NCBI GenBank assembly: GCA_034421575.1
Contig: DAOUKG010000032.1
Span: forward strand, 6,873-70,872
DNA: 64,000 bases
Source of the DNA: Dehalococcoidia bacterium
GTDB lineage: Bacteria > Chloroflexota > Dehalococcoidia > Lucifugimonadales > VXLM01
Reading direction: 5' to 3'
In this document: positions 2,849 to 27,770 of the stretch, piece by piece
Numbering within the stretch: the stretch's first letter is position 1
How the letters are laid out: every line of letters begins with the position of its first letter
Position numbers and translations under genes: made by a program
Notes under the pieces: model-generated
Databases searched by the model: none
What the model saw: the letters and a program-made list of their open reading frames with translations, nothing else
Told to the model about the DNA's origin: nothing

Positions 2849-2924
2849 GGGGATATAGCTCAACTGGGAGAGCGCGGCGTTCGCAATGCCGAGGTTGGGG
2901 GTTCGAGTCCCCCTATCTCCACCA
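2849..2924 (+). tRNA. tRNA-Ala (anticodon CGC)
   Basis: 76-nt cloverleaf: acceptor GGGGATA/TATCTCC with the G3:U70 Ala determinant, anticodon loop TT-CGC-AA, T-loop GTTCGAGTCC, encoded CCA. Confidence 0.97.
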
Positions 2925-3301
2925 TAGACTCCCATACTCATAACTCCGCCGTTGAGGACGATCTCTGCGACGTCTCCTCCTATGGGACTGTCCTACGGCG
3001 TGGGAAGTGTGTAACGTACCTTAGCCTCGCCGGGTCCAATCACTATCTCCTTGACGAACGACCGGATGAAAGCCCGCGACTCGGTGACTGCGGCCCGGTT
3101 GTCGGCCGATCGCTTCCTCGCCTGAGTGAAGGGTACAGCAGGATACCTGCCCAGACCGATATACCGCCGTCTCCCATCGATAGTAATGCGCTGAACCCAA
3201 CTCTTTCTCCCAGTCTTGCCAATGTACAAGTACAGACCCTCGCCGTCGGAATAGCGCCCAGGGTCGCAGAGTGACTTCATGCTCGCCACGGATAGCCTCA
3301 A
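2925..3301 (-). pseudogene. Chimeric integrase scar: tyrosine-integrase Arm-DNA-binding N-terminus fused to the C-terminus of a large serine recombinase
   Basis: 3086-3301 encodes GRYSDGEGLYL...KSWVQRITIDGRR...GLGRYP (P4-type Arm domain). 2925-3085 encodes SRAFIRSFVKEI..YTLPTP*DSPIGGDVAEIVLNGGVMSMGV, which aligns with the end of the recombinase at 26142-27770. There is an internal TAG at 2993-2995. Confidence 0.85.
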
Positions 3302-3651
3302 GTCGTGCCCTCCATCTCATCTGTTTCCACACTTTGCGTGGGAACGCAAGGGAATTATGGATGTCGGTCGAGATCCGTAAAGTCGGTCAAAAGTGGGGTT
3401 GTTGATAATATTCACAACTATGAATGCAGGTGTTATTGATACACAAAGAGACAGTTTGGGAACATCGGAGAAAGAGGTATTGTGGTGGGCCAAGGTTCAA
3501 CTGTAGACAGAACTATCTTCGAGATGACGATGGGACTGCGAGGATGGGCATGGGAGTTGGTTCAGAGAGTCTCTTCCATCACCCCGGCCACCCCGTCATG
3601 GTGGCAACGCCCACTCTCAGCGAGGGTACCTTCAGGCAGTTGGCGCGGCGG

Positions 3652-6600
3652 CTAGAGCCAGTGCCGCCTGCGCTGGAAGGGATAGCTCGGTATCGAGATT
3701 CGACGCCGGAATTCACCTGCAAACAGGCCGGTAAACGAGATGTCCAATCCGGCCTCGTAGGCCTGTGCCACGGCTCTCACGAACCCTTCATCGGACTCAG
3801 GTGATTCACCATCATTTGGCGGATTTTCCAAGGGGGAGAGTATGACCGGCACTTCCGATGAATCCGGCCAAGTGTCGCCGATTATCCGTTCCATCGTGGA
3901 GTCGGGACCGATTCCCACCACAACATCGACGCCGAGTTGGGCCAGAGTCTCCACGTGGCCGGAGAGAAGGGTGGGCACCTGATCCTCCCCAAGCCAGTAG
4001 TCGATACCGAGCGCGTCAAGAGACTCCACCATCTGGCCGGTTGGGGTGTTGACGAACGGGAGAGACGGCACAGCGAACGTGACGCCGTCGAGCGTCGTTT
4101 GCAGACTCTCACTCGCGGCTTGCGAATCAAACTCCGTCTGGGTCTCCTTCAACTCTCCCAGAGCCACGGCCAGACGCAAACCCTCGTCCAGGCTGAATAC
4201 TCCGGCCGCCTGCGCCGCTGCAATTCTTCCCGAACCTTGCGCCACCGCCGCGCTGGGGCGTATGCCGATGCTTGCCCATTGCGCGGTCAGGGCGCACTGA
4301 AGCGCGTAAATGGCCGGCTCAGCCCATGCCGGATCATTCAGGTCGTGCTCGATGCCGGGGCGACCGAACATCACATCCAGCAAGGAGGTTCCACGCTCTT
4401 GACGAACCAGGTCATCGCACCTGTCCAGCACTGTCCGTACGACCGGTTCGCTCCGATAGAGCGCCTCTCCCATGCCAGCCCACGTCCGTTCATACCCGGT
4501 GAACGCGAATGCTACTCTGCCCGCCTCACGAGGCGTTTCCCCATCCGACGCCTCATCTGTGTCAGCCAGCGCACGGAGTTTCTGTCGAAGTTGCTCGGCA
4601 TCGCTGAAGACCAGCCCGGTGCGATGTGCGAAGTGGCTCCGGCCCACGCTGGCAGTCCAGGCCATATCGGACAGCATCGCATCGGATTCGGAGCCTTCTT
4701 CGCCGTCGAGCCATGAGAGATAGCGCTTTACCGATTCACGGAGCGCGCCTTCCGACTTGCCGGAAAGCGGCAACAGGCGAACGGTTCGTTCCGTCGGAGC
4801 TTCGTCGGAGATCGAGACGGCGTCGGTCTGTTCGGGGAGCGACATAGGTATCGGTTGGGGAGCGCCCGTTGGCAGGCGTGTACCGTTGGGGTCCACTAGG
4901 TCACCCGGCGTGGCGCCGTAGCCTTCGAGCAAGACGTGGGCGTTGGTACCAGACAAGCCGAACGCGTTGACACCCGCCAGAGGAAGTCGGCCCGAATTGG
5001 TCGGCCAAGCCGTCTTGTCGGACATTATCCGAACCGGCATTCGGTCCCATTCGACGTTTGGGTTCGGGTCTTGGTAATGGAGATGTGGAGGGATCACTCC
5101 CTTATTCATCGAGAGGACGGCCTTGATGAAAGCCGCGATTCCGGCAGCCCACTCAAGGTGTCCGATGTTCGACTTGACGGTTCCGACGAGCAGGGGTCGA
5201 TCTTCGTCTCGGCCCTTGCCGTAGACCGAGCTCGCGGCATTCAACTCGATAGGGTCTCCGAGCTGAGAGCCGGTCGCGTGCGCTTCCAGGTAGTCCACGT
5301 CCGATGGGGAAACGCCGGCCTGGGCAAGCGCATCCGTCATAACTCGCTCTTGGGCGGGACCATTGGGCACCGTTAGACCCGCGCTCGCGCCGTTCTGGTT
5401 GACCGCAGACCCCCGTATCACGGCGTAAATGCGGTCACCGTCGGACTCGGCTTCGCTCAAACGCTTCAGCACGACCATTCCGCAACCCTCGCCACGGACG
5501 TAGCCGTTTGCAGAGGCGTCAAATGGGCGGCAGTATCCCGTAGGCGACAACATGCCGATTTCCAACATGAATGCGGAAGTTGAGGGGGAAAGTACCACGT
5601 TGACGCCACCGGCGAGAGCGAGATCAACTTCGCCTGTCTGGAGGCTTACAGCCGCTTGGTGTACCGAGGCCAGCGACGACGCGCAGGCCATGTCGACGGG
5701 CAATGCCGGTCCCTCCAGGCCCAGCGCGAAGGCGATCCGGCCGACGGCTACGCTTCCGGTTGTGCCGAGGAAACCATGTGCCAAGCTGTGGGATTGCAGC
5801 AGATCACGGTACTCGCTGGTGCCAACTCCCGCGTATACGCCGGTGCGGCTGCCTCTAAGACTGTCCGGGGCAACTCCCGCGTCCTCGAGGGCCTGCCAAC
5901 TCGTCTCGAGCAACATCCGCTGCTGGGGGTCCATCAACCGCGCCTCGATCGGCGAAATGCGGAAGAACCGCGAGTCGAACCAGTCAATCCCATCGACAAA
6001 CGCGCCTCGTCGATTTATCACTTCCTCAGCATCGGGGTCACCGACGGCGCCGCTCCAGGAACCGTCATCCCGGCGGCCTTCGGTAATTGCATCGGCACCC
6101 GCTTCCAGGAGCTTCCAGTATTCGGCCAAGTCATTGGCGCCGGGGAAGCGGCAGGCCATGCCCACGACCGCGATTGCGTCTTCATCGGTCCTCGTCGACA
6201 CGCCGGGTTCGGGGGTAAGCGGTTCAGGGGATGCGGGCGATGAAGGAGCATCGTCGACTTCGCCAAGCTGACCGAGCTCTTCGGCCAGGTGAGTCGCGAG
6301 GGCCGTGATGTCGGGATAGTCGAATACGGCAGTGTTGGAGACGACGTACTCGCCTGACAGGGCACGATTCAGCCGGTTCCGAAGCTCCACCGCCATCAGC
6401 GAGTCCATTCCCAAGTCGAAGAAACCAACCGAAGCGGCCGGAGCGGATTGCAGGCGCAGCACCGCTTGAATTTCGCCTTGCAGGAAGGAGGAAAGCAACG
6501 AGGCCCAGTCCGTGGCGGGTCTTTGCCGTAATTGGGAAAGGAGGTCGGCGTCATCCACGTCGGCAGATTCGTCAGTTTCCGAGTCCTCGGTAACCAACTC

Positions 6601-9600
6601 ATCAAGGAACGGGTTCTTCTCTTCGAAGTTCTCCGCGAATACCGGCCAATCCACCACCGCAACCATGCCGGCAGTCAAGTCCTGCCGTACCAGTTGATCG
6701 AAGGCCTGGAGACCTTGCTCCGGCGCGATCCATCCAGTGCCCGACGCGGCCAGTTGTCGTTCAATTCGTTCGCGCTGCTCTTCGGCTTCGCCCAGCCCTG
6801 ACCAGGCACCCCACGCGATAGATTGACCGGGGAGTCCCAGGGACCTCCGGTATGCGGCCAGCTGGTCCAAGTAGGTGTTTGCCGCGGCGTGATTGCCCTG
6901 GCCCGAGTTGCCCAGTACCCCAGTGATGCTGCTAAAGAGGACGAACAGGTCGAGGTCTTGATCGAGTGTCGCCTTGTGCAGCTGCCAAGCGCCCAATACC
7001 TTTGGCCACAGGACCTGTTCGAAGCGTTCCCAAGTCTGGTTTCCCAGGGAGCCGTCGGACAGCACTCCCACGCTATGGATGACGCCAGCCAGGGGAGGCA
7101 TTTCAGCGTCCATCCGGGCCAGCATGGCGTCAATCTCTGCAGGTTGGGTCGCGTCGGCCAACTCGACCCGCACGTCGACGCCGCGCTGTCTGAGAGCCTC
7201 AATCACTTCCACGGCCTCTGGGTCGGGAGACCTACGCCCGTTCAGAACAATCACACCGGCCCCGTGGTCCGCCAGCCATTCGGCCACTACGGTACCGATG
7301 CCTCCCAGGCCCCCGGTGACCAGGTACGTACGGTCAGGCCGCAATCGACCGCCGGCCATGGGCGGCAACGCAAGCACGTTCTTTCCGATGTGCCGGGCCG
7401 ACCTCATAAAGTCCATGGCGGCTCCGGCTTCGGCAATGGGCCATCGGGTATGCGCCAACGGCTTCAAAGAGCCGGCCGATATCTTCTTCATCACGTCACG
7501 GAGCACGGCGCCCGGAACGGTGGGTTCATTCAATTTCAGCCAGTCCAATTCCAGGATTGAGTAGGACACATCCGGACGCGATGCCGCCATCTCCTCTGCT
7601 GTCCAGATGTCCCGCCTGCCCATCTCCACGAAACTTCCACCGTCAGCCAGGCAGGAGAGACCGGCCTCGATGAACCCGGGGCCGGTGAGGCTGTTGAGCA
7701 CCATGTTTACGCCGGCGCCGTTCGTGGCCTCCAGGATGTCCTGCCCGAATTCGGCTGTTCGACTATCGAAGACGTGCTCGATCCCCAGCGAACGGAGATA
7801 GGCCTGCTTGGGGGAACTTGCCGTGGCGAACACCTCCAACCCTGCTGCCTGCGCCAGTTGTACCGCAGCCAGTCCCACACCGCCCGAAGCGGTGTGGATT
7901 AGCACTCGATCTCCCGCCTTCAAGTCAGCCATCTCGAAGCTCAGCCCGGCACTAACGAAGGCAGAGGGTATGGTTGCCAGCGCTGACGCCGAAATCCCCC
8001 CCGGCGCAGCAGCAACCAGATCCGCCCTCGTTACGACCTCGGGACCGAACGTGCCGAAGGCCAGTCCGACCACCCGGTCGCCCACGGCGAAGTCCGTGAC
8101 GTCCGGGGCTGCTTCCACTATTCGTCCGGAGAACTCCTCGCCCAACTTAGGGTCTGCCGAATTCACGACACCCATACTGAGTAGAACGTCAAGAAAGTTC
8201 AGGCCGACCGCGTCCACCGCCACTCGAACCTGGCCCGGCGCAAGGGGCTGATCCTGTACGGGTTCGGCGTGCAGTCCTTCCAGCGCTCCCTCCGCACCCG
8301 GCATAAGACGCCAAGCCGATTCTTCCGGCAACTCCAGTCGTACTCTTGAACTGCCGCTTCGGATCAGGCGAGCGGCCAGGCGGTTGCCGTCCCGGTAAGC
8401 GACCTGAGTTTCCTGATCGGGGTGCGTTAGCTCATCGGCCAGATGAGCAATCCGGGCCGGGTTGGCGGGGTCGAGATCCAGCAATTGTGGGCGAAGGTAT
8501 CCCGCTTCCCGCGCAACCGCCCTGCCGAAACCCCACAGGGTGGCCCCCGCCAGTTCTCCAACATTCTCGCCCATGTAGTCGCGCTCCAGGGCCTGCGCTC
8601 CCAACGTTATGAACCAGAGGCCTTTCTCCGGAGCAACATCGGCATCCAATATGCCCTGCACCAAGGCCAGGGCGGTGCTCCCGGCACTCTTGGCATCCTC
8701 GAGGAGTTGGGCCGTGGAAGCCTGCGGCCCGTGTCCATCGAGGGCATTCAGATGCAACACGCCTTGTAGCGGGATGTCCTTGGGGAGTTCCTTCAAGAGG
8801 TCCTGCCATGATTCCCGGCTGCCAGCCGATACGGCCCTCCGAACAATGTTGACCTCACTTACCGGCGTCTCGGATGGCCGGCTCGGCTCTGCCAGCACGA
8901 CGCTCTGGTTTCTGGACTCCAGTTCTCTGGCCAGCAGCAGGCCCGTACCGCCCGAATCCGAGGATATGACCCACGACCCGGGAGATTGAGCAATTTCCGC
9001 CGGGCCCTGCGCGAGAATAACGCTGGAGCCGAACGGCCCGCCTTCGTCGGCGCCCTCCGTCCCGAGGAAGCCCACCTCGTCATAGCCCGAATCCAACAGC
9101 GCCCGGCACCATATCGATGGATGGGCCATGGCGTGAGACGGCCGGTAATCGTCGGCGAACCGCCACCAGCCATCAAGCAGGCCAAAGGTGATGTCCTGCC
9201 AGCCGCGACCGCGCATGTTCTCAAGGGCCATCAGTTGGCCGGAGGGTGCGAGCAGTTCGCGGCAATGGGTCAGGGTTTCGCCCAAATCACGGGTAGCGTG
9301 AAGCACGTTCGCTGCAATAATCAGATCATAGGCATGGGATTCGAAACCCTGGTTTGACGGATCCCTTTCAATGTCCAATGGGCGGTATTCGATCGGTATT
9401 TCGGAACCGCTGAAGCGGTCTTCGGCTTCCGCGAAGAAGCCGGCCGAGATATCAGTGAACACGTAATCGCACTCCGCCGGGAGTTCCGGCAGTACCACCG
9501 ACGTCGCCGAACCAGTGCCTGCGCCGACCTCCAGCACACGCAAGCGTCGTTCGCCCGTCCAGTCCCTCACCACTCGGGCTACGGCGTCTGCCAGGAGCCG

Positions 9601-12600
9601 GTTGGACGCACGGGAAGCCGGGGCAACGAAATAGTACTCTGTTACGCCGGGCCCCTCACTTCGAAAGAGGATATCCAGGGGATCGACAGTCCCGCGAAGC
9701 CCGTCCGCAAGCGCGGCGCCACTTCGTCGCAGGATGTTCAACTCGTTGTGGCCGTGGGGATAGCGCTCAACCATCTTGTCCGCAAAGATCTCGGGGTCGG
9801 CCAGGGCATCGTCGGGCAAGGGGTCGCCAGTGCCAACTTCTACGATGTATCCACCCTGCTCTGTGGCCTCAGTGAGGAGTCCACCGTCCTTTAGCAGTCG
9901 GAGCATACGTCCAACCAGCTTGGTGTGTTGGGGTTCGATCTGCAGTAGGTCTCGAAGGGAATCGGGCTCGACCGGTTGGCCCTTGCGGCGCTGCCAACCC
10001 AGTTGTTCCAACGCCGCGAGAGAGTAGGAGCGGGATAGGCGCTCAAGGTCGCTCAGGAGCATGGCCCGGTCGTCGATCGTGACGCCCTCGCTCGATAGAT
10101 AGTCTTCAAACGTTCTCATACCTTCGCCGGCCGCTCGCGGCCCGACCAGCGCTTGGGCCGATTGCAGCGTGCCGACCAATGGGCGTTCTCGCCAGACAAC
10201 CTCGTAAAGCAGGTCGTCCAGTCCCTCCGATGCGGAGAGGAGTGCAGCTCGCGTGGCCCGCTTTACGGTGAATCCCGTTAGACCGCCGATGACATCCCCT
10301 TCAGGGGTGTAAAGCATCAAGTCACCGGTCAAGGTTTCGGGTGTTTGAGCGGTCGCTTCATTCTCGCCCTGCGCTTGAACGGTCTCCCTCAGCCGTGCGT
10401 GACAGACCAGTCGATCGGGCAGGGGGCCACTCAGCCATAGCCTCTCCCATCCGAATGGGAGATAGGTGGCGTCGCCTCCGATTCCTGAAAGGTTGCGGGT
10501 GGCCGAGAAGACCTGGAAGCAACCGTCGATCAGCAGCGGATGAATGTCCAAGTCGCCGGTATCTCCCGCGCCCTGAAGTGCAACTTCACCGACCGCCTCA
10601 CCTCCTTCACCCCAGAGAGCTTCCAGGGTACGGAATGACGGGCCGAATTCAATCCCGCTGGTAGTCTTAGCCCTGTAGTAGGCAGACAGGTCCTGAGGAG
10701 TGAGATCGGCCTTCAACGTGTCCAGGTCAATCCGCTTGCCGATTGCCGGCTGTGCGGCGTCCGGAGACAGACGTCCCTCGGCATGGAGCAGCCAGTCCTC
10801 ACCATCTTCTCCCTTGCTAAAGACCTCGAAGGTTCGCGCAGCTCCGTCCTTCGAGCCGCCGATGACCACCTGCAAACGGCGTCCCGGCGCCTCCCTGTCT
10901 CCGTCGGGAGAATATGCGGGGTAGACAAGAGGGTTATGCAGTTGCAATTCCTCTACTACAGAGGCATCCCCGCCCTCCATAAGTTGTACGGTGGCGGCCA
11001 TAGCTCCATAGACCGCGCCGGGCATGACGACTCTACCGTAGACCTGGTGGTCGTTAAGCCATGACGGGTCCGTGGGATACATCTCCGTTTCGTACATCAC
11101 GTCGCCATGGGGAGACTCGTGCCGGACGCCTAAGAGCGCGTGGGCGTCGCCGGACCTGCGCCTCTGAGAGGCGGTTACCCAATGCCGCTGTCGCTGGAAG
11201 GGATATCCCGGTACGGAGATGCGTCGCCGCTCCTCTCCTGCGAACAGGCCGGCAAAGTCGACCGGCAGGCCGGCCACGTAGGCGTCGGCGACTGCCTGGA
11301 CGAAGGCATCGGCACGTTCGGGCTCGGAACCGTCGAATGAGGGACGAAGCAGGCTCTGCAAGACGACGGGAGACACGACGTTTCCCACACCTTGCGGCCA
11401 GTTCAGGGACACCAGCGGGCCCAGGATTGCATGAGGACCGATCTCGATGACGGCGTCGACTCCGAGTTGCGCCAGGCTCTCGACGCAGCTGCGGAAGGCC
11501 ACGGGCTGCCTGGCATGTTGCCGCCAGTAGGCCCCGTCCATTCTTGTTTCCACCGGCTGGCCTGTCAGGTTGCTGACGAGAGGGATTGCGGGTTCGGAGA
11601 CAGACAATGTCGCAATGGCCGCCTCCATCTCATCAAGCCCGGGTTCGACGAGAGCGCTGTGATAGGCCGGGCTTGGCCTGAGCCGCCTTACGTTTAGCCC
11701 AGCCGACTCCAGTTGGTCAGAGAGGGCGTGTACTGCTTCCTGCGGTCCGCTGACCACCTGGTGAGTTCCATTGTCCACACCTATGCAAAGGTCTGCGCAG
11801 GGGTGCGCGTCGTTCCAATCGTTCACCGCTTGGGAAACCTCGTATTCGGGAGCGAATATCGCGGCCATGGCCCCGTCACTCGGAAGGTCTCCCATTATCC
11901 GGCCCCTGGCGGAGGCGAAGCGTAGGCCGTCCTCCAAGGTCAGAACGCCTGAAGAATAGGCGGCAGCAATCTCGCCCAAGCTGTGACCCAATACGACATC
12001 CGGCCGGATCCCAACACTGTCCCAGAGGGCCGTGAGCGCGCATTCCAGAGCGTAGATGGCGGGCTGAGTCCAACGGGGTTCATCCAGGTCCCCGGCAGCG
12101 CTGGCCCTGCCGAACATCACATCCAGTAGAGATGCGCCTCGCTCCTTTTGAATCAGCCGGTCGCAGCGGTCGAGAACGGCGCGAAATACCGGTTCGGTGC
12201 GATAGAGCAACTCGCCCATGCCCAGCCATTGATTGCCCTGTCCGGTGAAGGCAAAGGCTACTTTTGAGGCACGTTGGGCGCTGGGCTCGCCGGTAGAGTC
12301 CGCGATTTGCTTCAACCCGTCACGCAGAGAAGGGGCGTCTCGAAAGAGGACTGCATTACGGTTTTCAAAATGGCTGCGCGCAACACCGGCGGTCCAGGCC
12401 ATGTCGGAAAGATCGGCATCGTTGGCACTGCCGGAGGCGAATGCGGGGCCGCTCTGCTCGTCAAGCCAGGACAGGTAGGAGCTCGCCGCATCTCGCAAGG
12501 CGGCGTCGGACTTGCCCGAAAGCGGTAGAAGACGCGCGGGACGGGCATCAACATTCTCAGAGGGCGGTTCTTCCTCAGAACCGGTAAGTGTTGATGGAAC

Positions 12601-14040
12601 GGCGCGAAGCGGCCCGGCCGGTCGTGACATTCCACCATTGTCTACGAGAGGCTTGGCTGAATCGGGATAGCCTTCGACAATCACGTGGGCGTTCGTCCCC
12701 GACCAGCCGTAGGCACTTATGCCAGCGCGCGGAGGACGGTTCGGATGGAGCGGCCACTGGGTCAATTCCGAGGCTATCTTCACCGACAGCCGGTCCCAGT
12801 CCAGACGAGGGTTCGGATCCCGGAAGTGCAGATGCTTGGGGACCAACCCGTTCTGCAATGACAGCATGACCTTCATCAGACCGGCAACTCCAGCGGCAGG
12901 CTCCAGATGTCCGATGTTCGACTTTACCGAGCCGACCAACAGGGGGCGATCGGTTTCTCTCCCTCTGCCATATACTTCCGCGGCCGCGTTCAACTCGATG
13001 GGATCACCCACTTCCGTGCCCGTGCCGTGTGCCTCCAGGTAGTCCACTTCCGACGGAGCGACTCCAGCCCGCCGCAACGCTTCGGCGATCACGCCAGCCT
13101 GAGCCGGTTCGCTGGGCACCGTCAGCCCGGTGCTCGTCCCGTCCTGGTTGAGCGCAGAGCCTAGTATCACGCCCCAAATTCGGTCGCCGTCAGCCTCAGC
13201 GTCGCTGAGTCTTTTCAACACGACGATCCCGCAGCCCTCGCCTCGGACGAAGCCGTTGGCCGAGGCGTCGAAAGCCTTGCACTTGCCGTCTGGGGACAAC
13301 ATCCGGGCGTTAGCCCGCAGTTCCGTCAGCCGACCGGAGAGAATCGCCTGCACCCCGCCGGCCAAGATTGTATCCGCCTCGCCCCGTTGCAGGGCCGAGA
13401 CGGCCTGGTGCATTGCGACTAGGGAGGAGGAACAGGCGGTGTCCACCGCCATGGCGGGCCCTTCAAATCCCAGGGCGAACGCGACCCGGCCGGCAGCAGT
13501 GTTCAGGGAGGTGCCACTCACGGCGTAGAGGCTCGTGGTAGCCTCGGCGGTCTGGCTGGAATCCAGGTTGATGAGACGGTAGTCCATGTTGCTGATGCCG
13601 ATATAGACCCCGGTGCGGCTGCCCTTAAGCCGTTCCGGGTCTATGCCCGCGTCTTCGAGGGCCTGCCAACTCGTCTCCAACATCAGCCGCTGCTGCGGGT
13701 CCAACAGTTGCGCTTCGACGGGCGATATACGGAAGAACGAAGCGTCAAACAGGTCGATCCCGTCGATGAAGGCCCCGAACCGGCAGGCGTCGCTTTGGAC
13801 TTCGGCGTTGGGGTAAAGCTCGCCGACACGCCCGACACCTGAGCCGGGGACGCCCTCGGTCACTGCGTTCCTGCCCTCGACCAAAAGCTGCCAGAAGGAG
13901 TCCAGATCCGACGCACCCGGGAAGCGGCAGGCCATGCCTACTATCGCTATCGGCTCTCCGGTCTGGGAAACGCTCCGTTCCCCGTCCATGGATAGAGAGG
14001 CTGGTTGATTTGAGGAACTTGCATACGGTGTTTGTGTCAT
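3652..14040 (-). CDS. supA: Type I PKS, SupA-like (KS-AT-DH-cMT-ER-KR-ACP-KS-AT*)
   Basis: KS1 DTACSSS/HGTGT/NIGH; AT GHSLG; DH HQVYGRVVMP; MT LEVGAGTG; ER LIHTASGGVG; KR TGGLGGIG; ACP LGMDSL; KS2 DMACASS; degenerate AT2. Domain order matches the sponge-symbiont SupA PKS. Start taken at ATG 14040 (the ORF extends to 14124). Confidence 0.88.
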   Translation of the reverse strand: MTQTPYASSSNQPASLSMDGERSVSQTGEPIAIVGMACRFPGASDLDSFWQLLVEGRNAVTEGVPGSGVGRVGELYPNAEVQSDACRFGAFIDGIDLFDASFFRISPVEAQLLDPQQRLMLETSWQALEDAGIDPERLKGSRTGVYIGISNMDYRLINLDSSQTAEATTSLYAVSGTSLNTAAGRVAFALGFEGPAMAVDTACSSSLVAMHQAVSALQRGEADTILAGGVQAILSGRLTELRANARMLSPDGKCKAFDASANGFVRGEGCGIVVLKRLSDAEADGDRIWGVILGSALNQDGTSTGLTVPSEPAQAGVIAEALRRAGVAPSEVDYLEAHGTGTEVGDPIELNAAAEVYGRGRETDRPLLVGSVKSNIGHLEPAAGVAGLMKVMLSLQNGLVPKHLHFRDPNPRLDWDRLSVKIASELTQWPLHPNRPPRAGISAYGWSGTNAHVIVEGYPDSAKPLVDNGGMSRPAGPLRAVPSTLTGSEEEPPSENVDARPARLLPLSGKSDAALRDAASSYLSWLDEQSGPAFASGSANDADLSDMAWTAGVARSHFENRNAVLFRDAPSLRDGLKQIADSTGEPSAQRASKVAFAFTGQGNQWLGMGELLYRTEPVFRAVLDRCDRLIQKERGASLLDVMFGRASAAGDLDEPRWTQPAIYALECALTALWDSVGIRPDVVLGHSLGEIAAAYSSGVLTLEDGLRFASARGRIMGDLPSDGAMAAIFAPEYEVSQAVNDWNDAHPCADLCIGVDNGTHQVVSGPQEAVHALSDQLESAGLNVRRLRPSPAYHSALVEPGLDEMEAAIATLSVSEPAIPLVSNLTGQPVETRMDGAYWRQHARQPVAFRSCVESLAQLGVDAVIEIGPHAILGPLVSLNWPQGVGNVVSPVVLQSLLRPSFDGSEPERADAFVQAVADAYVAGLPVDFAGLFAGEERRRISVPGYPFQRQRHWVTASQRRRSGDAHALLGVRHESPHGDVMYETEMYPTDPSWLNDHQVYGRVVMPGAVYGAMAATVQLMEGGDASVVEELQLHNPLVYPAYSPDGDREAPGRRLQVVIGGSKDGAARTFEVFSKGEDGEDWLLHAEGRLSPDAAQPAIGKRIDLDTLKADLTPQDLSAYYRAKTTSGIEFGPSFRTLEALWGEGGEAVGEVALQGAGDTGDLDIHPLLIDGCFQVFSATRNLSGIGGDATYLPFGWERLWLSGPLPDRLVCHARLRETVQAQGENEATAQTPETLTGDLMLYTPEGDVIGGLTGFTVKRATRAALLSASEGLDDLLYEVVWRERPLVGTLQSAQALVGPRAAGEGMRTFEDYLSSEGVTIDDRAMLLSDLERLSRSYSLAALEQLGWQRRKGQPVEPDSLRDLLQIEPQHTKLVGRMLRLLKDGGLLTEATEQGGYIVEVGTGDPLPDDALADPEIFADKMVERYPHGHNELNILRRSGAALADGLRGTVDPLDILFRSEGPGVTEYYFVAPASRASNRLLADAVARVVRDWTGERRLRVLEVGAGTGSATSVVLPELPAECDYVFTDISAGFFAEAEDRFSGSEIPIEYRPLDIERDPSNQGFESHAYDLIIAANVLHATRDLGETLTHCRELLAPSGQLMALENMRGRGWQDITFGLLDGWWRFADDYRPSHAMAHPSIWCRALLDSGYDEVGFLGTEGADEGGPFGSSVILAQGPAEIAQSPGSWVISSDSGGTGLLLARELESRNQSVVLAEPSRPSETPVSEVNIVRRAVSAGSRESWQDLLKELPKDIPLQGVLHLNALDGHGPQASTAQLLEDAKSAGSTALALVQGILDADVAPEKGLWFITLGAQALERDYMGENVGELAGATLWGFGRAVAREAGYLRPQLLDLDPANPARIAHLADELTHPDQETQVAYRDGNRLAARLIRSGSSRVRLELPEESAWRLMPGAEGALEGLHAEPVQDQPLAPGQVRVAVDAVGLNFLDVLLSMGVVNSADPKLGEEFSGRIVEAAPDVTDFAVGDRVVGLAFGTFGPEVVTRADLVAAAPGGISASALATIPSAFVSAGLSFEMADLKAGDRVLIHTASGGVGLAAVQLAQAAGLEVFATASSPKQAYLRSLGIEHVFDSRTAEFGQDILEATNGAGVNMVLNSLTGPGFIEAGLSCLADGGSFVEMGRRDIWTAEEMAASRPDVSYSILELDWLKLNEPTVPGAVLRDVMKKISAGSLKPLAHTRWPIAEAGAAMDFMRSARHIGKNVLALPPMAGGRLRPDRTYLVTGGLGGIGTVVAEWLADHGAGVIVLNGRRSPDPEAVEVIEALRQRGVDVRVELADATQPAEIDAMLARMDAEMPPLAGVIHSVGVLSDGSLGNQTWERFEQVLWPKVLGAWQLHKATLDQDLDLFVLFSSITGVLGNSGQGNHAAANTYLDQLAAYRRSLGLPGQSIAWGAWSGLGEAEEQRERIERQLAASGTGWIAPEQGLQAFDQLVRQDLTAGMVAVVDWPVFAENFEEKNPFLDELVTEDSETDESADVDDADLLSQLRQRPATDWASLLSSFLQGEIQAVLRLQSAPAASVGFFDLGMDSLMAVELRNRLNRALSGEYVVSNTAVFDYPDITALATHLAEELGQLGEVDDAPSSPASPEPLTPEPGVSTRTDEDAIAVVGMACRFPGANDLAEYWKLLEAGADAITEGRRDDGSWSGAVGDPDAEEVINRRGAFVDGIDWFDSRFFRISPIEARLMDPQQRMLLETSWQALEDAGVAPDSLRGSRTGVYAGVGTSEYRDLLQSHSLAHGFLGTTGSVAVGRIAFALGLEGPALPVDMACASSLASVHQAAVSLQTGEVDLALAGGVNVVLSPSTSAFMLEIGMLSPTGYCRPFDASANGYVRGEGCGMVVLKRLSEAESDGDRIYAVIRGSAVNQNGASAGLTVPNGPAQERVMTDALAQAGVSPSDVDYLEAHATGSQLGDPIELNAASSVYGKGRDEDRPLLVGTVKSNIGHLEWAAGIAAFIKAVLSMNKGVIPPHLHYQDPNPNVEWDRMPVRIMSDKTAWPTNSGRLPLAGVNAFGLSGTNAHVLLEGYGATPGDLVDPNGTRLPTGAPQPIPMSLPEQTDAVSISDEAPTERTVRLLPLSGKSEGALRESVKRYLSWLDGEEGSESDAMLSDMAWTASVGRSHFAHRTGLVFSDAEQLRQKLRALADTDEASDGETPREAGRVAFAFTGYERTWAGMGEALYRSEPVVRTVLDRCDDLVRQERGTSLLDVMFGRPGIEHDLNDPAWAEPAIYALQCALTAQWASIGIRPSAAVAQGSGRIAAAQAAGVFSLDEGLRLAVALGELKETQTEFDSQAASESLQTTLDGVTFAVPSLPFVNTPTGQMVESLDALGIDYWLGEDQVPTLLSGHVETLAQLGVDVVVGIGPDSTMERIIGDTWPDSSEVPVILSPLENPPNDGESPESDEGFVRAVAQAYEAGLDISFTGLFAGEFRRRISIPSYPFQRRRHWL

Positions 14041-14587
14041 ATGGCATTTGTCCCTGAGGTTGGGTTTATCGAAGAGGAATCCGCTATCAGCATTATGACA
14101 AGCGGCAAGCGATTGGGAAAGCACTCCCGACCGGCGGGCCTGTGGTAATGGGGATATCGCAGATGGCCTTAGCGGTTCCCCGGCTCATGGGCGTATCTGT
14201 GGAGCACTACCTGCAAGTTGCGTGGACAGCGCCCTCAATGGAATGGGAGGTACTCATGGTTCGTCTTTGCAACTACAGGGTCCGCATAGGTGGACGTGCC
14301 GAGTCCATGGGTTCATCACGGTAAAGAGGTTTTATCCTGGCGCTGCGGAAAGTGGCTGCCTCCAGAGCATCTCATCTCGCAGCGCTGGACAGGAAGCACT
14401 TCCCTCAGACAATTCACGGAAGAGTTCGAGTCCCCGCAGGTCTTAGATACAAATGAGTGGGCCAAGGCGTACCGATTTACGAACTTTTCGGTGGGATGTT
14501 CGTATATAGCCCAAGTGGGGAAAACAGCAGGAACAAGACCGTCAAGAATCCCACGAAGATCAGGAACATTACGGAGTACCTGTTGGT

Positions 14588-20169: not shown

Positions 20170-21930
20170 ATGTCGAGTTCACCATCAACCCGTGATTTAG
20201 AAACGGAAAAGTTGGTAGACGATTGGGAGCTTCTAAAGCAGGAACGGCCTCGTGACCGGACCGGCCCAACATCCAAGGGTCGAATCGGCACAGTGCTTAG
20301 CTTCCTTGGCCTACGCTATCAGAACGAAAGTGAACTCACGCTCCGGAAAGAAGACCGGTCAGGAAGACGATGGGTCTACTTTACGTTTGAGACCGACCCA
20401 CAAGGCAGCAACGCCGTTCGTGGGGCTCCTCAGTTTGGCTCTCAGGCCAATGGCACCTATCACATCTTCTGTCTTTGGGAGGATGCCAGGCCAGATCGGA
20501 TCTTTCGCAACACAAGCATCGACAAGGCGGCAAGGGGCAATCAGGGCGCGGTCGTTGTTCTCTATCTCAGTGCTCTGACCGAACCCGAACGTCATGACGT
20601 ACGCCGGGAGTCTTGGGCGAACGACCTTACTGTCCTGATAGTTGACGAAGTGCTGTTGACATACCTTGCCCGTTGTGAGGGTGATAGATTCAGGCCCTTT
20701 CTCGAAGTCTCCCTTCCGTTTACAGCAGCCAACCCTTACAACCCGGAAACGGCTGGTTGGGGCTCGAGGGTGGCTCCGGAAATGTTCTATGGTCGTGAGC
20801 AGCTGGAACGTGAGATTGTCTCGCGAGGTGGCACCTCACTGATTTTTGGAGGTAGACAGCTCGGTAAGACGGCCTTGCTCAGACATGTGGAGGAAGGGTT
20901 CTCCGACCCCGACCTACGACGATTCGCATGGTTCATTGATCTGAAGGCAGCAGGCTATGTGCCCGATGCTGAGTCCGCAAAAGACCCTAGTGATATTCTT
21001 GAGGTGCTTCACGACAGCTTTAGACAAGATGACATCCTGGGAGCCGATACGAGCGGTCATAGTCAGGAACAGATGCGTCAGGACATTCTTGACGCCTTCG
21101 AGAACGACAGAGACCTTCAGGTTCTGGCCATGTTCGACGAGTCGGATGCATTTCTTCAACGTGACTGGTCTTCTGGCTCTCCGGTGGTGGAGTCGCTCCG
21201 AGCACTCATGGACGACACTGGCAACAGGTTCAAGGTTGTCTTCGCCGGGCTCCACAACGTACAGCGTTTCGCCAACCGGCCCAACAGTCCGTTCCCCAAT
21301 TTGGGCTTCAACTCCAACACTCCTCGGAGAGGGGGGATCGGGCCCTTAAGGGACCACGAGGCAAGAAACCTCGTAGAGCAACCATTCAGTCTGTTGGGCT
21401 TTAGATTCGAACCCCTCGCAGTTGACAAAATTCTTAGCTATACCAACAGGCATCCTTCATTGATCCAGTTTTTCTGTCATGAGCTTATACAGTCATACAG
21501 GCAGAGCAATCCGGACGGGAGCCCACCATTCACAATTGGAATAGATGAGGTCGACAGGGTGTATCGAACTCAGAGCATACAGGGAGGTATCAAACGGCGA
21601 TTCAAGGCGACCTTCGAACTGGACCCCCGCTACCATGTGATCGCCTTAGCAATGATCCTGGATCAAGAACATCCAACGCAGAGCTGGGGTTTGGACAAGT
21701 TGAGGTCGCACTGCCAGTCCTACTGTCCACTCACGTTCGAGCCGGATAGCCTCAGCAACCTCGAGTTAGCGTCGCTCTTGAACGAATTGATTGGACTGGG
21801 CGTTCTCGCTCAGGATGGAGATTCCTACCGAATGAGAAGTTCACTCATCGCACAAATGTTTGGAAGCGAGGATGAAGTAATTGAAATGCTTGGCGAACTT
21901 GAGGCTGAGGAGCCGTATTCGGTAAGTTGA
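20170..21930 (+). CDS. STAND-class P-loop ATPase with C-terminal winged helix
   Basis: NPY..PEMFYGRE, Walker A GGRQLGKT, Walker B VLAMFDESD, VVFAG sensor, YTNRHPSLIQ (GxP-equivalent), and a wH-like end (LNELIGLGVL). Confidence 0.85.
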   Translation: MSSSPSTRDLETEKLVDDWELLKQERPRDRTGPTSKGRIGTVLSFLGLRYQNESELTLRKEDRSGRRWVYFTFETDPQGSNAVRGAPQFGSQANGTYHIFCLWEDARPDRIFRNTSIDKAARGNQGAVVVLYLSALTEPERHDVRRESWANDLTVLIVDEVLLTYLARCEGDRFRPFLEVSLPFTAANPYNPETAGWGSRVAPEMFYGREQLEREIVSRGGTSLIFGGRQLGKTALLRHVEEGFSDPDLRRFAWFIDLKAAGYVPDAESAKDPSDILEVLHDSFRQDDILGADTSGHSQEQMRQDILDAFENDRDLQVLAMFDESDAFLQRDWSSGSPVVESLRALMDDTGNRFKVVFAGLHNVQRFANRPNSPFPNLGFNSNTPRRGGIGPLRDHEARNLVEQPFSLLGFRFEPLAVDKILSYTNRHPSLIQFFCHELIQSYRQSNPDGSPPFTIGIDEVDRVYRTQSIQGGIKRRFKATFELDPRYHVIALAMILDQEHPTQSWGLDKLRSHCQSYCPLTFEPDSLSNLELASLLNELIGLGVLAQDGDSYRMRSSLIAQMFGSEDEVIEMLGELEAEEPYSVS

Positions 21931-24902: not shown

Positions 24903-25846
24903 GCGCCGTCACGCTGGACGATTTCTGCCGCCACCTCGTGGACGGTGAACCTCCCAACGAGAGACTCCATCCAACGGGCGTGGCTCGGGAGTTCGTGGGA
25001 TTCTTCGGCCTATCGCCCTTTCCACACATGGACGAGACCGAGTCGCTGCTCAACAGAGCCGTCATCGCTACCGTAGTTCGATCTCATGACATGGCAGGGT
25101 TAAGGGGATATCACACGGGAACGAACATCGGCAGCTATCAGATCGTAATCGACGCGACTGATGGCATCGTGGCCCAGGAGCACACGGTGCTCCACGAGAC
25201 TTACGAGATCATCAAAGAAAGGCTCGGAGACCTCTATACGGATATCGGAGTCCCGCAGGGCAAGAGCATGTGCCGTCAGGCCGACCGGTTCGCCGCTGCG
25301 GTGCTGATGCAGCCCTACTGGTTCTCCCTGTTCGCCACGTCGTCAGGGTTGGACATTATCGCCCTGCAAAAGGCATACGGCCGCGCCTATTCGTCGGTGA
25401 TCTTGAGGCTGGCCGAGGTGATGCGGGATCAGCCGCTCATTGCGGTCCTGTACGAGCGCGGAGAGGCAAGGGAGCCCTACTTTCGGACGACGGCTCCCGT
25501 TGCGCACTTCAGGGCTACGGTCGTAGCCCGCACTCCCGGATTCGGGGCGCGCCACAGCCGCGCGTTGTGCGGAACGAAGGGAGGAATGCCGCGATGGGGA
25601 AGGCCCCTTCCTCCCGGCTCGCTTGCCGAGGGCGTGGCGCTGACGGGCAAGCCGAGCTACGTCGAGAAAGAGCCGGGGTTTGGCGATGTGGCCGTCGCCG
25701 CAAGACCGGTATTCCGGCGGGGACGTTTGAAAAGGATCGTCGTAGTTGCCGTGCCCTATAACGACTGTGCCGTTTTGCTGCGCCAGACCGCAGACCCATC
25801 TTTCGAGTCCGCGCGTCGCCTAGCTGTGGCGGCCGGTCCCTGGTAG
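24899..25846 (+). CDS. ImmA/IrrE-like metallopeptidase (variant zinc motif)
   Basis: HTVLHETYE and QADRFAAAVLM motifs, an HTH-like middle region and a GAF-like C-terminus; GTGA overlap with the repressor. Confidence 0.75.
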   Translation: MSAVTLDDFCRHLVDGEPPNERLHPTGVAREFVGFFGLSPFPHMDETESLLNRAVIATVVRSHDMAGLRGYHTGTNIGSYQIVIDATDGIVAQEHTVLHETYEIIKERLGDLYTDIGVPQGKSMCRQADRFAAAVLMQPYWFSLFATSSGLDIIALQKAYGRAYSSVILRLAEVMRDQPLIAVLYERGEAREPYFRTTAPVAHFRATVVARTPGFGARHSRALCGTKGGMPRWGRPLPPGSLAEGVALTGKPSYVEKEPGFGDVAVAARPVFRRGRLKRIVVVAVPYNDCAVLLRQTADPSFESARRLAVAAGPW

Positions 25847-25914
25847 TTGCAGGTAGATTGCTAGGTGAGTTATAGTAAGACAATGTCATACTACGGAAGG
25901 CAAAAAGAGAGACG

Positions 25915-26145
25915 ATGCCAGCAATCCCGAGGAACACCAAGACCATCACCTTCTCCCTGCCGCCTGAGATGGCGGAGCAGGTGCATGAAGTGATGCGGGA
26001 AGAGGGCCGGACGATGAGCGAACTGATCCGAGAGGCTCTACGCAACTACATGGAGGAGCGGGAATGGCTCAGGGATATCCGGTCCCAGAGGCTCAGAGAA
26101 CGTGAGAAAGAACGGGAAGACGTCAGAAGGAGGACTGAAAAGTGA
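25915..26145 (+). CDS. Ribbon-helix-helix (CopG-like) protein
   Basis: KTITFSLPPEMAEQVHEVMREEGRTMSELIREALRNY. Confidence 0.85.
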   Translation: MPAIPRNTKTITFSLPPEMAEQVHEVMREEGRTMSELIREALRNYMEEREWLRDIRSQRLREREKEREDVRRRTEK

Positions 26146-27770
26146 TCGATAAGCAACCTAAAGACTACACACCGGCAGCCCTCTACGCCAGAGTTTCCAG
26201 CGACCGTCAGGATGTTGACCTGTCCGTCGCCGCACAGTTGAGGGCGCTCCGGGAGCACGCCGAAAAGAACGGTTACATGGTTGTGCGCGAGTATGTCGAC
26301 GAGGCCGAAAGCGGACGCATCGCCGACAGGCCCCAGTTCCGCAAGATGCTGGACGAAGCCTCAAAAGCCAGTGCCCCCTTCCAGGAGATTCTCGTCTGGA
26401 AATTCTCCCGCTTCACGCGGAAGCGGGAGCACGCCGTCGCTTTCAAGTCCATGCTTCGAAGACGCGGTATTCGAGTGACATCGATCACTGAGCACGCCGA
26501 CGACTCGCCCACAGGCAAGCTCATGGAAGCCATCATCGAGAGCGTGGACGAGTTCTATAGCGAGAACTTGGCCCAAGAGGTCACGCGGGGGTTGCGTGAG
26601 GCCGCCTCTCGTGGCTTCTGGATGGGCACCAACGCCCCATTTGGCTACAAGAAAGTCTACGTCCAAGACGGAGCCAAGAAGCGCCCGAAGCTGGAGCCGA
26701 ACCCGCCAGAAGATGCAGTGGTCAAGCGCATGTTCGACATGGCCCTGCAGGGCATGAGTTCACTCGACATCGCCAGGAACCTCAACGCCGAAGGCATCGC
26801 CAGTCCCAAAGGGAAGCAGTGGCTCAAGAGTACCGTCCACACAACTATCAACAACGAAGCATACACAGGCACCGTAGTCTGGGGAGTCAATGCCAAGGAC
26901 GGCGCTCCGCCGGTACGCGTCGAGAAGGCGTTCCCCGCCATCGTCTCCAAGCGCAAGTTCCAGCAGGTCGCCAACCTGCTGAAATCTCGCGCACCTAAGA
27001 GCGTACATCCCCGCCGGGCGTCCAGCCCTTACCTGCTCAGCGGACTGGCAAAGTGCGAGACATGCGGCAAGGCCCTCACTGCAGCCGAGGCCAAAAGCGG
27101 CAAGTACACCTACTACGTCTGCCACTCCCTGCTCAAGAAGGGTAAGGGAACGTGCAGGACTCCCAGGCTCAACTCGAAGAACTTTGAGGGCCTGATCGTC
27201 TCCAACATCCGCGACAATATCCTCACTGAGAGCAACATCCGCGACCTTGTGAAGATAGTGGACGGGGAGATGGACGGGGTTGCCCGCGAGCAGCGCAAGA
27301 GACTGAAGGTAATCGAAGAGGAGCTTGAGGACGTGAAGAAACGGCTGGACAAAATCTGGCACGCCATCGAGACGACCGATATCGAGATGTCCCAAGCCTC
27401 GGACCGCATCAAAGAGAACTGGGAGCGCAAGGAGAAGCTGGAAACCTCGGCTGAGGAGGCGCGGGCGGCTCTGTCGAAGCGGAGAGTTACGCTGGACAGG
27501 ATGGCGAAGATCACGGACTTCGCACAGGAAATGAGGGAGTATCTAAAGAAAAGCGACCTAACCCAGTCGAGGGCGTTCATACGGTCGTTCGTCAAGGAGG
27601 TTTCGGTCAGGCCCGGCAAGGCCACGATCCACTACACAATGCTCACTCCGGAGGATAGTCCCACATTAGGCGGCGACACCGCAGAGGTCATCCTGAACGG
27701 AGGAGTTATGAATATGGGAGTCTCAAGTGGGGAAGGAGGGACTCGAACCCTCACGCCTTGCGGCACATGA
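26142..27770 (+). CDS. Large serine recombinase (integrase)
   Basis: Catalytic ALYARVSS, RPQF..ML, recombinase domain PFGY, zinc ribbon CETCG..YYVC..C, coiled coil. The last ~14 codons lie antisense within tRNA-Leu. Confidence 0.95.
   Translation: MIDKQPKDYTPAALYARVSSDRQDVDLSVAAQLRALREHAEKNGYMVVREYVDEAESGRIADRPQFRKMLDEASKASAPFQEILVWKFSRFTRKREHAVAFKSMLRRRGIRVTSITEHADDSPTGKLMEAIIESVDEFYSENLAQEVTRGLREAASRGFWMGTNAPFGYKKVYVQDGAKKRPKLEPNPPEDAVVKRMFDMALQGMSSLDIARNLNAEGIASPKGKQWLKSTVHTTINNEAYTGTVVWGVNAKDGAPPVRVEKAFPAIVSKRKFQQVANLLKSRAPKSVHPRRASSPYLLSGLAKCETCGKALTAAEAKSGKYTYYVCHSLLKKGKGTCRTPRLNSKNFEGLIVSNIRDNILTESNIRDLVKIVDGEMDGVAREQRKRLKVIEEELEDVKKRLDKIWHAIETTDIEMSQASDRIKENWERKEKLETSAEEARAALSKRRVTLDRMAKITDFAQEMREYLKKSDLTQSRAFIRSFVKEVSVRPGKATIHYTMLTPEDSPTLGGDTAEVILNGGVMNMGVSSGEGGTRTLTPCGT

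Follow-up and report, generated by a model that had tools for sequence, protein, structure and literature searches.

Serine integrases are favoured for the insertion of large DNA, but each known one requires its own rare site. Here we ask how the 3′ end of such an integrase gene came to lie directly against the CCA end of an intact tRNA-Ala(CGC) gene in a Dehalococcoidia bacterium (GenBank assembly GCA_034421575.1, contig DAOUKG010000032.1, positions 6,873 to 70,872; this whole stretch of 64,000 nucleotides (nt) is called the window). Analysis of the 64-kb window with ARAGORN found two tRNA genes, Ala(CGC) at 2849–2924 (+) and Leu(TAG) at 27727–27809 (−), and both meet sequence of one large serine recombinase (LSR) family: a remnant at tRNA-Ala and, at tRNA-Leu, an intact gene belonging to an element that we call element Y. 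LSR insertion at a tRNA 3′ end is unusual for the enzyme class and has one published precedent (DsiB). Taken together with the mechanism and history proposed below, the remnant is in our view probably an attL-type junction, at which the tRNA-Ala body is joined to the P′ arm of a Dehalococcoidia integrative element. The argument starts from the following features.

2849–2924, + strand: intact tRNA-Ala(CGC), the B half-site (ARAGORN), with the G3:U70 pair and an encoded CCA
2919–2924, + strand: common core CCACCA (tRNA nt 71–76), the sole sequence common to all junction types
2925–3088, − strand: severed 3′ end of an LSR gene, codons ~474–536, identified by homology to the intact LSR
2925–2951, − strand: P′ half-site, the last ~27 bp of the LSR remnant
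26142–27770, + strand: intact LSR, 542 amino acids (aa), with Resolvase, Recombinase and Zn_ribbon_recom domains
27727–27809, − strand: tRNA-Leu(TAG), the B half-site of element Y (ARAGORN)

The integrase remnant at tRNA-Ala

The remnant aligned to the tail of the intact LSR (27561–27723) with 77.3% nucleotide identity over 163 nt (blastn, E=9e-30) and a one-codon gap, and the local alignment score of 84 compares with 8.7 ± 1.3 in 500 shuffles. Translated searches (tblastn) matched it at E values of 3e-17 to 4e-21, and it is 80% identical at the nucleotide level to the tails of two further family members, L002 and L003. Homology sets in abruptly at 'T(E/Q)SRAFIR' (~3088), extends to the tRNA, is interrupted by an in-frame TAG at 2993–2995 and spans solely the region past the putative coiled coil of the LSR. 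An earlier, sequence-only reading of this DNA had described a remnant of the same LSR family at tRNA-Ala in the register of tRNA-Leu, and the minus-strand translation, the stop codon and both aligned DNA strings that it quoted proved correct.

At both tRNA genes the element-derived DNA stops at the discriminator/CCA, and beyond this point the sequence is tRNA specific as far as the common antisense T-loop GGACTCGAACC, which read in frame gives the peptide 'GTRT'. Entry into the tRNA at the discriminator/CCA, with GTRT derived from the T-loop, was also claimed in that reading and is seen both at 2924/2925 and at tRNA-Leu. The last 44 nt of the intact LSR are antisense to the tRNA-Leu 3′ end, with its P′ half-site at about 27705–27731. 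The 3′ end of tRNA-Ala(CGC) is the same as in 11 close relatives; tRNA-Leu ends, post-integration, in ...CCCCACTTG (27722–27731) and no longer encodes CCA, whereas the empty tRNA-Leu sites of relatives encode ...CCCCACCA, that is, CCACCA. An independent public assembly (sample SAMN17524325, ENA analysis ERZ23495174) contains both junctions, each on its own scaffold and with 100% identity, and they are therefore not artefacts of the window.

The intact LSR, whose exact protein is also encoded on ENA scaffold_775, is predicted from its domains to be an attP × attB recombinase (PF00239, E=2e-32; PF07508, E=6e-21; PF13408, E=9e-11). A weak DUF7201 coiled-coil match covers residues 382–444 (E=0.022), and the closest solved structure is that of SPbeta SprA, with an alignment covering 54–414.

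Encoded CCA was likewise lost after integration at a tRNA-Lys gene (L005). An exact 11-nt repeat, CAAGTGGGGAA, occurs at 14511–14521 and 27722–27732, the second copy spanning the core of the tRNA-Leu junction; the copy at 14511 was considered as the far end of the Leu element and rejected, having no P arm alongside, and is probably due to chance.

Integrase genes at many tRNA genes

A survey of one genome per species yielded 93 LSR relatives, of which 80 loci (LSR-A) were kept. All 80 come from metagenome-assembled genomes of Dehalococcoidia/Chloroflexota, many from sponges, except three short contigs with other bin assignments. In 39 of the 80 the LSR tail lies directly against the 3′ end of an antisense tRNA gene, at 14 isoacceptors (Leu-TAG, Ala-TGC/CGC/GGC, Lys-TTT, Val-TAC/GAC/CAC, Met-CAT, Arg-CCG/CCT/TCG, Ile-GAT and Asn-GTT), and 4 further loci abut tRNA 3′ fragments; chance adjacency, estimated from tRNA gene density, is ~4e-4 per locus. 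Alignment of the loci by their tails revealed that all read ...GAGTT(ATGAAT/CGCAGT)...N...TGGTGG, after which comes a tRNA body or else a conserved P-type arm, and that only TGGTGG, the complement of CCACCA, is common to all junctions. The common core of the junctions measures 6–9 bp, and a search for long direct repeats of tRNA 3′ ends as far-end markers found none. One locus (L041) holds a complete small element of 6.2 kb, with a P arm on one side and the LSR/tRNA-Ala junction on the other.

tRNA-Ala(CGC) itself is a recurrent site. An intact antisense LSR stands at exactly its CCA end in a close relative (L170), intact LSRs stand at it in L008 and L055, and a non-coding P′-like arm in L165. 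The suggestion of the sequence-only reading that an element of this family was once integrated at tRNA-Ala is thus borne out by the tRNA linkage of the family and by the intact LSR at the same site in L170.

Near-identical enzymes occur at different tRNAs. Among intact tRNA-linked LSRs, 10 pairs reach at least 95% identity, and the two members of 7 of these are found at different isoacceptors with identical P′ arms; examples are L001 (Leu-TAG) and L002 (Ala-TGC), 98.3% identical within one genome, L007 (Val-TAC) and L008 (Ala-CGC), 97% identical, and L046 (Val-GAC) and L054 (Lys), 96.6% identical. L046 is moreover 100% identical to L047, one of the two standing at a tRNA and the other at a P arm. 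One enzyme with one attP thus appears, as far as sequence comparison can tell, to use several tRNAs without protein retargeting. The sequence-only reading had envisaged paralogous LSRs that target structurally equivalent sites of unrelated tRNAs: the equivalent sites hold, at 14 isoacceptors, but LSRs 95–98% identical to each other are not paralogues retargeted one by one. Taken literally, retargeting would mean that each paralogue evolved protein specificity for its own tRNA. The LSRs at tRNA-Arg, which fall into groups of their own with the core TGGTAC, and the one at tRNA-Asn, whose core is TGGCTC, speak for this, and no LSR more than 90% identical to them was found at a tRNA with a TGGTGG core. 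Different cores are, however, also what would be expected if the crossover dinucleotide at nt 71–72 must match between the partners, which explains the Arg/Asn split more simply, and in view of the near-identical pairs we regard tRNA-by-tRNA protein specificity as improbable.

With the site centre placed after the fifth base of TGGTGG, which separates tRNA nt 72 from nt 71, the motif G(A/G)GTT has its GTT at positions 25–23 in LSR tails (n = 74), in non-coding P arms (n = 7) and in the tails of a second clade, LSR-B (n = 78), and the T-loop GGTTCGA has its GTT at positions 19–17 in tRNA arms (n = 40) and in 17 non-tRNA 'short arms'. The half-site consensus has a common centre and dyad sites, with the distal motif moved between P-type and B-type arms, and the 6-bp difference holds wherever the centre is placed and comes near the half-turn shift between attP and attB of LI integrase. 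Beyond the tail of 17 LSR-B loci comes a non-tRNA site in which GGACTCGAAC is retained at the spacing of tRNAs. Recognition through the shared antisense T-arm plus the acceptor end, as the sequence-only reading had put forward, fits a T-loop at a fixed distance from the junction that is kept in non-tRNA pseudo-sites too; its retention there at the exact tRNA spacing is the best, if indirect, sign that the motif may be read.

We propose that the LSR of such an element would recombine attP with tRNA genes at their extreme 3′ end, and that the P′ half-site of attP would be contained in the final ~27 bp of the gene for the recombinase itself. attP and attB would share CCACCA, with the 2-nt crossover placed at nt 71–72, and the enzyme would read the T-loop, T-stem and acceptor as a B-type half-site, in which GGTTCGA stands 6 bp nearer the centre than G(A/G)GTT does in the P arm; we infer the exact crossover dinucleotide (C71–C72) and which protein domain reads which motif. 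The P′ arm would resupply nt 72/73–76, so that the tRNA remains intact, and the integrase open reading frame (ORF) would then run into the antisense tRNA and acquire a meaningless 'GTRT' tail. Because the tRNA half-site would be generic, the same enzyme and attP could use many tRNA genes ending CC-A-CCA, and protein retargeting would be unneeded. That the universal T-loop and acceptor-CCA would be a single sufficient host half-site, with little needed from the other side, is a tentative extension of this scheme, about which we remain somewhat doubtful.

If the host site is a generic tRNA 3′ end, the family would be a natural case of relaxed yet precise targeting under a simple rule, a matching dinucleotide plus a T-loop at a fixed distance; on the tentative extension, any CCA-encoding tRNA gene with nt 71–72 matching the element core would be a natural landing pad. 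In some genomes, including those of eukaryotes, tRNA genes have no encoded CCA and the CCACCA core would be lacking, a caveat for transfer.

The LSR-B clade (L081–L160) is ~53% identical and more abundant, with at least 540 stretches in the one-genome-per-species collection, and was never tRNA-adjacent in the 80 loci analysed. The ORF of this clade closes with ...SGPP*, and the sequence that encodes it, CCGGCCCACCA, matches a tRNA-Lys acceptor end exactly. In 21 of 80 LSR-A and 39 of 80 LSR-B loci, two full-length LSR genes from different clades stand tail to tail, their convergent ends 10–40 bp apart or overlapping over one TGGTGG/CCACCA core, which gives a ~50-bp attP-like dyad (at ~7560–7630 in L004, L006, L010, L013, L014, L020, L021, L024, L039, L052, L057, L059, L063, L064, L069, L076 and L079; at ~11540 in L083 and others). 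These pairs could reflect tandem accretion or the use of one integrase 3′ end as the landing site of another element; if one host half-site is indeed sufficient, the 3′ ends of sister elements' integrase genes could dock elements, which would explain why such pairs are frequent. A two-integrase element with LSR-B at its far end was rejected, as no matching partner lay within 10 kb in the 80 LSR-B loci.

Some loci of the survey depart from the common pattern. At the tRNA-Val(GAC) junction of L017 (~7545–7580) an extra GGCCGGAAGTGG lies between tail and core, as from a duplicated former junction. Units of ~100 bp that run from a P arm at one end to a B-type 'short arm' at the opposite end (L015, 7563–7680; L041, 1384–1490) may be miniature or decayed elements; a tRNA-like RNA in the ~105-bp unit between two cores was considered and rejected, with no Rfam match and folding no better than that of shuffles. 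Distant LSRs, 48% identical, occur as two tandem genes of the same orientation (L073, 6001–9133; L078, 2498–4619), unlike the convergent pairs.

History of the tRNA-Ala locus

The DNA beyond the remnant, which belongs in part to a second element that we call element X, comprises the following features.

3089–3301, − strand: N-terminal 71 codons (Arm DNA-binding domain) of a P4-type tyrosine integrase (PF13356, E=5e-15)
3302–3482, − strand: spacer, inverted here, that in relatives separates the CCA end of tRNA-Ala from the start of the tyrosine integrase gene (alignment)
3483–3534, + strand: far-end junction, with the core TGGTGG (reverse complement of tRNA-Ala nt 71–76) and a conserved ~46-bp P arm (nhmmer)
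3535–25358, + strand: body of element X, with a polyketide synthase (PKS) gene, an amine oxidase gene, cargo of low G+C content (16.6–23.2 kb) and a helix-turn-helix (HTH)/HTH/315-aa module; same as ENA scaffold_1693
3652–14124, − strand: PKS gene, 3490 aa, with ketosynthase, acyltransferase, dehydratase, methyltransferase and further domains
25359–26566, no strand: suspected assembly or recombination seam, a 1.2-kb repeat common to elements X and Y (three-way comparison, identity profiles)
25915–26145, + strand: ribbon-helix-helix (RHH) gene, 76 aa (PF01402), whose stop overlaps the LSR start

The Arm fragment is fused in frame to the LSR tail within an ORF at 2993–3301, inverted relative to the canonical position; this ORF changes to LSR sequence after codon ~71 and is without the C-terminal catalytic domain of tyrosine integrases. 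Judged by its two homologies, it is a fusion of two truncated integrase genes of unrelated families, a new observation that is absent from the sequence-only reading. The gene order 707-aa protein/HIT/tRNA-Ala(CGC) is conserved in 11 close relatives, and in 5 a tyrosine integrase gene lies on the + strand downstream of the tRNA, the Arm fragment being 85–90% identical to the integrases of L161, L162 and L169 and 61–66% identical to those of L164 and L171; L168 and L172 have a similar spacer by tRNA-Ala, with no Arm homologue detected. The reverse complement of window 3500–3080 aligns to the relatives' 'CCACCA – spacer – Arm' with 83% mean column identity, and homology to their tRNA-Ala flank begins precisely at CCACCA. 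The P arm that follows at 3483 is the single nhmmer match in the window (E=3.5e-9); an ungapped position-weight-matrix scan had missed it owing to a 1-nt indel. Both integration junctions of tRNA-Ala are thus present, tRNA/P′ at 2924/2925 and P/flank at 3483, the latter inverted. An origin of the tyrosine integrase island at tRNA-Leu was discarded, there being none at the tRNA-Leu locus of any relative.

The most parsimonious history is one inversion that broke the LSR gene at codon ~474 and the adjacent tyrosine integrase gene at codon ~71; it would have flipped what remained of the element, far-end junction included. Between 2849 and ~26.6 kb the window holds, in order, the tail remnant, the inverted Arm and spacer, the core, the P arm, the PKS gene, cargo, the regulatory module and the 5′ part of an LSR gene (+), and the order and orientation of all these parts agree with the one-inversion prediction. 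We therefore lean, with slightly less than even confidence, towards the view that the remnant would be the cut-off 3′ end of element X's own integrase (LSR X).

The window itself probably joins the tRNA-Ala and tRNA-Leu loci artificially through the 1.2-kb repeat, which contains the 3′ end of the gene for the 315-aa protein, the RHH gene and the 5′ end of the LSR gene. In the independent assembly, scaffold_1693 equals the window from 1 to ~25.4 kb at ~100% identity (six mismatches at ~15.0–15.2 kb) and continues into an LSR that diverges to foreign DNA at codon ~163, where the scaffold ends; scaffold_775 equals it from ~26.0 kb to at least 30.8 kb at 100%, with 68–78% identity and quite different cargo upstream. 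Compared site by site, the window tracks scaffold_1693 up to 25358 and scaffold_775 from 26567, and from 25471 to 26489 there are 12 window-private variants at which both scaffolds agree. In six complete relatives the two tRNA loci are 1.36–2.9 Mb apart on the linear sequence, or about 1.2–1.7 Mb if the genomes are circular. A single 24-kb element from 3483 to tRNA-Leu was rejected on these grounds, its halves lying on different scaffolds and the tRNA loci megabases apart in relatives. The simplest reading of the seam is an assembler path switch through the repeat, a true recombinant being a possible alternative; as each tRNA junction is confirmed on its own scaffold, the seam leaves the junction finding untouched. 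The DNA that interrupts LSR X at the end of scaffold_1693 (16458–16518 of L256) has a 41-nt exact match in L248 (~21029–21069) and may be the end of an insertion sequence.

Several observations weigh against the account given so far. The remnant is 77% identical to the tail of the element Y integrase (LSR Y), yet the 5′ part of LSR X is ~98% identical to LSR Y, so that the LSR gene must be a mosaic if the inversion model holds; the reciprocal joint that the model predicts, between LSR codon ~473 and integrase codon 72, did not turn up; and on the independent scaffold LSR X is already broken at codon ~163. Tabulation of adjacent tRNAs and frames among homologues, the check proposed in the sequence-only reading, recovered the same register in the 39 tRNA-adjacent loci, but these are just about half of the 80, and in roughly half of the homologues an attP-like arm takes the place of the tRNA. 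The motif moves by 6 bp here and by 5 bp in the published case, LI integrase, in which the zinc-ribbon-domain motif lies 5 bp further inward in attB than in attP (PMC3783163). The downstream (B′) side of empty tRNA sites, CCA plus flank, shows no conserved motif among relatives, and no excised circle or intact attP of this element was found. Part of this evidence would suit a remnant of an older, separate LSR element at tRNA-Ala, decayed or displaced in a tandem array and followed by several later deletions or rearrangements: the remnant is just 77–80% identical to any other tail as against ~98% for the 5′ end of LSR X, tandem accretion with P′–core–P junctions is common in the family, and the in-frame stop and one-codon gap show some decay. 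Such a history, which we hold to be unlikely though a serious contender, needs at least two or three events where one inversion accounts for the order and orientation of every part, and the far-end junction only 400 bp off carries exactly the tRNA-Ala flank.

Two further explanations were weighed. In one, the linkage is due to the neighbouring tyrosine integrase and the LSR is merely cargo, as the adjoining integrase fragment and the tyrosine integrase islands at the same tRNA-Ala in 5 relatives might suggest; but a homologue of the Arm domain lies near just 1 of 80 LSR loci, it is the LSR tail itself that meets the CCA end in single-base register, and the integrase gene begins about 160–180 nt past the tRNA in the same orientation as the tRNA, which together make this very improbable. 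In the other, the similarity stems from tRNA conservation or chance, or the fragment is a translocated copy unrelated to integration at tRNA-Ala, as the sequence-only reading had itself allowed. The T-loop part GGACTCGAACC is indeed shared simply since both genes are tRNAs, but the homology extends over ~160 nt outside the tRNA, 39 other loci show the identical register, the same tRNA-Ala site is occupied by an intact LSR in L170 and a matching far-end junction is present at 3483; translocation is refuted on these points and the explanation as a whole deserves next to no weight.

Known systems and further observations

The geometry of this LSR family resembles that of DsiB, the ssrA-specific LSR of Dehalococcoides genomic islands (McMurdie et al. 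2011, PMC3146451), a likeness drawn from descriptions rather than from sequence. DsiB belongs to the same bacterial class and is an LSR of ~540 aa at the island edge that faces its target; in every case the ORF runs into the 3′ end of a tRNA-like RNA gene and has its stop codon beyond the island (PMC3146451), as the 542-aa LSR here overlaps tRNA-Leu by 44 nt and as ORFs overlie their targets in 39 loci. DsiB islands form tandem arrays with the target gene regenerated (PMC3146451), likewise here. DsiB differs in that its target is the single transfer-messenger RNA (tmRNA) gene, where a direct repeat of 20 bp occurs and crossover was proposed to take place in the T-loop (PMC3146451), against at least 14 tRNA isoacceptors and a 6–9-bp common core at CCACCA, and in its partner DsiA, a small serine recombinase, where the family here has the 76-aa RHH gene upstream. 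No tmRNA adjacency was found in the 160 loci scanned, the sole tmRNA (L119) lying 7.7 kb away. If the proposed mechanism holds, the family would extend that of the Dehalococcoides ssrA islands to a large, previously undescribed mobilome of sponge-associated Dehalococcoidia. The sequence-only reading had called tRNA targeting classically a tyrosine-integrase trait: surveys of streptococcal elements, which found tRNA genes to be occupied by tyrosine integrases and protein genes by serine ones, agree, but DsiB at ssrA precedes the present case of an LSR at a tRNA-like 3′ end (PMC3146451).

Phage-type serine integrases (A118/LI, Bxb1, phiC31, SPbeta SprA) have the same set of Resolvase, Recombinase and zinc ribbon domains and dyad half-sites whose distal motif lies about half a helical turn nearer the centre in the host site; they differ in using one specific site, usually in a protein gene, and attP does not normally lie inside the integrase coding sequence. 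P4-type tyrosine integrases likewise enter tRNA genes in their 3′ part and restore the tRNA with DNA of the element, with relatives using different tRNAs, but are an unrelated family with different chemistry, long identity segments and a gene oriented as the tRNA. Multi-targeting LSRs, in which one LSR uses several natural sites with a common motif (Durrant et al. 2022, PMC10083194), offer a further parallel, and the occurrence of near-identical LSRs (≥95%) at different tRNAs, in one case within a single genome, would place the present family among them; the main text of that study has 0 occurrences of tRNA (PMC10083194), and the motif here is universal RNA-gene architecture. SCCmec CcrAB, cited by the DsiB authors as nearest characterised relative (PMC3146451), are serine recombinases whose insertion site is the very 3′ terminus of a conserved housekeeping gene, but form a two-recombinase system with a protein-gene target (rlmH). 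No described LSR family that uses many tRNAs was found in the literature searched.

LSR elements carry cargo such as the 10-kb PKS gene, which lies just inside the P-arm end of element X and appears to be cargo; a homologue, 58–67% identical, lies 1.5 kb downstream of tRNA-Ala(CGC) in L167. The module HTH (−)/HTH/315-aa protein/RHH/LSR recurs in 38–49 of 80 loci with varying cargo. The RHH gene stands upstream of the LSR in 49 of 80 LSR-A and 34 of 80 LSR-B loci, and its product is a candidate regulator or directionality factor. A viral origin was rejected for lack of any real match in IMG/VR, and the elements look like integrative islands of 6 to >20 kb rather than recognisable phages. A motif of ~75 nt ending ...TAGACTGCTT..CGG.AG.TCGAGTC.C follows the CCA end of different tRNAs (in L163 after 2997, L244 after 12386 and L248 after 11648), with a partial copy upstream of the PKS gene at window ~14390–14445; it may represent a small RNA or what is left of an att site used by another type of integrase. 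Ankyrin-repeat genes adjoin tRNA-Leu (27993–30646, −), and the order ank367/ank498/tRNA-Leu is kept in relatives, the ank genes being duplicated in some.

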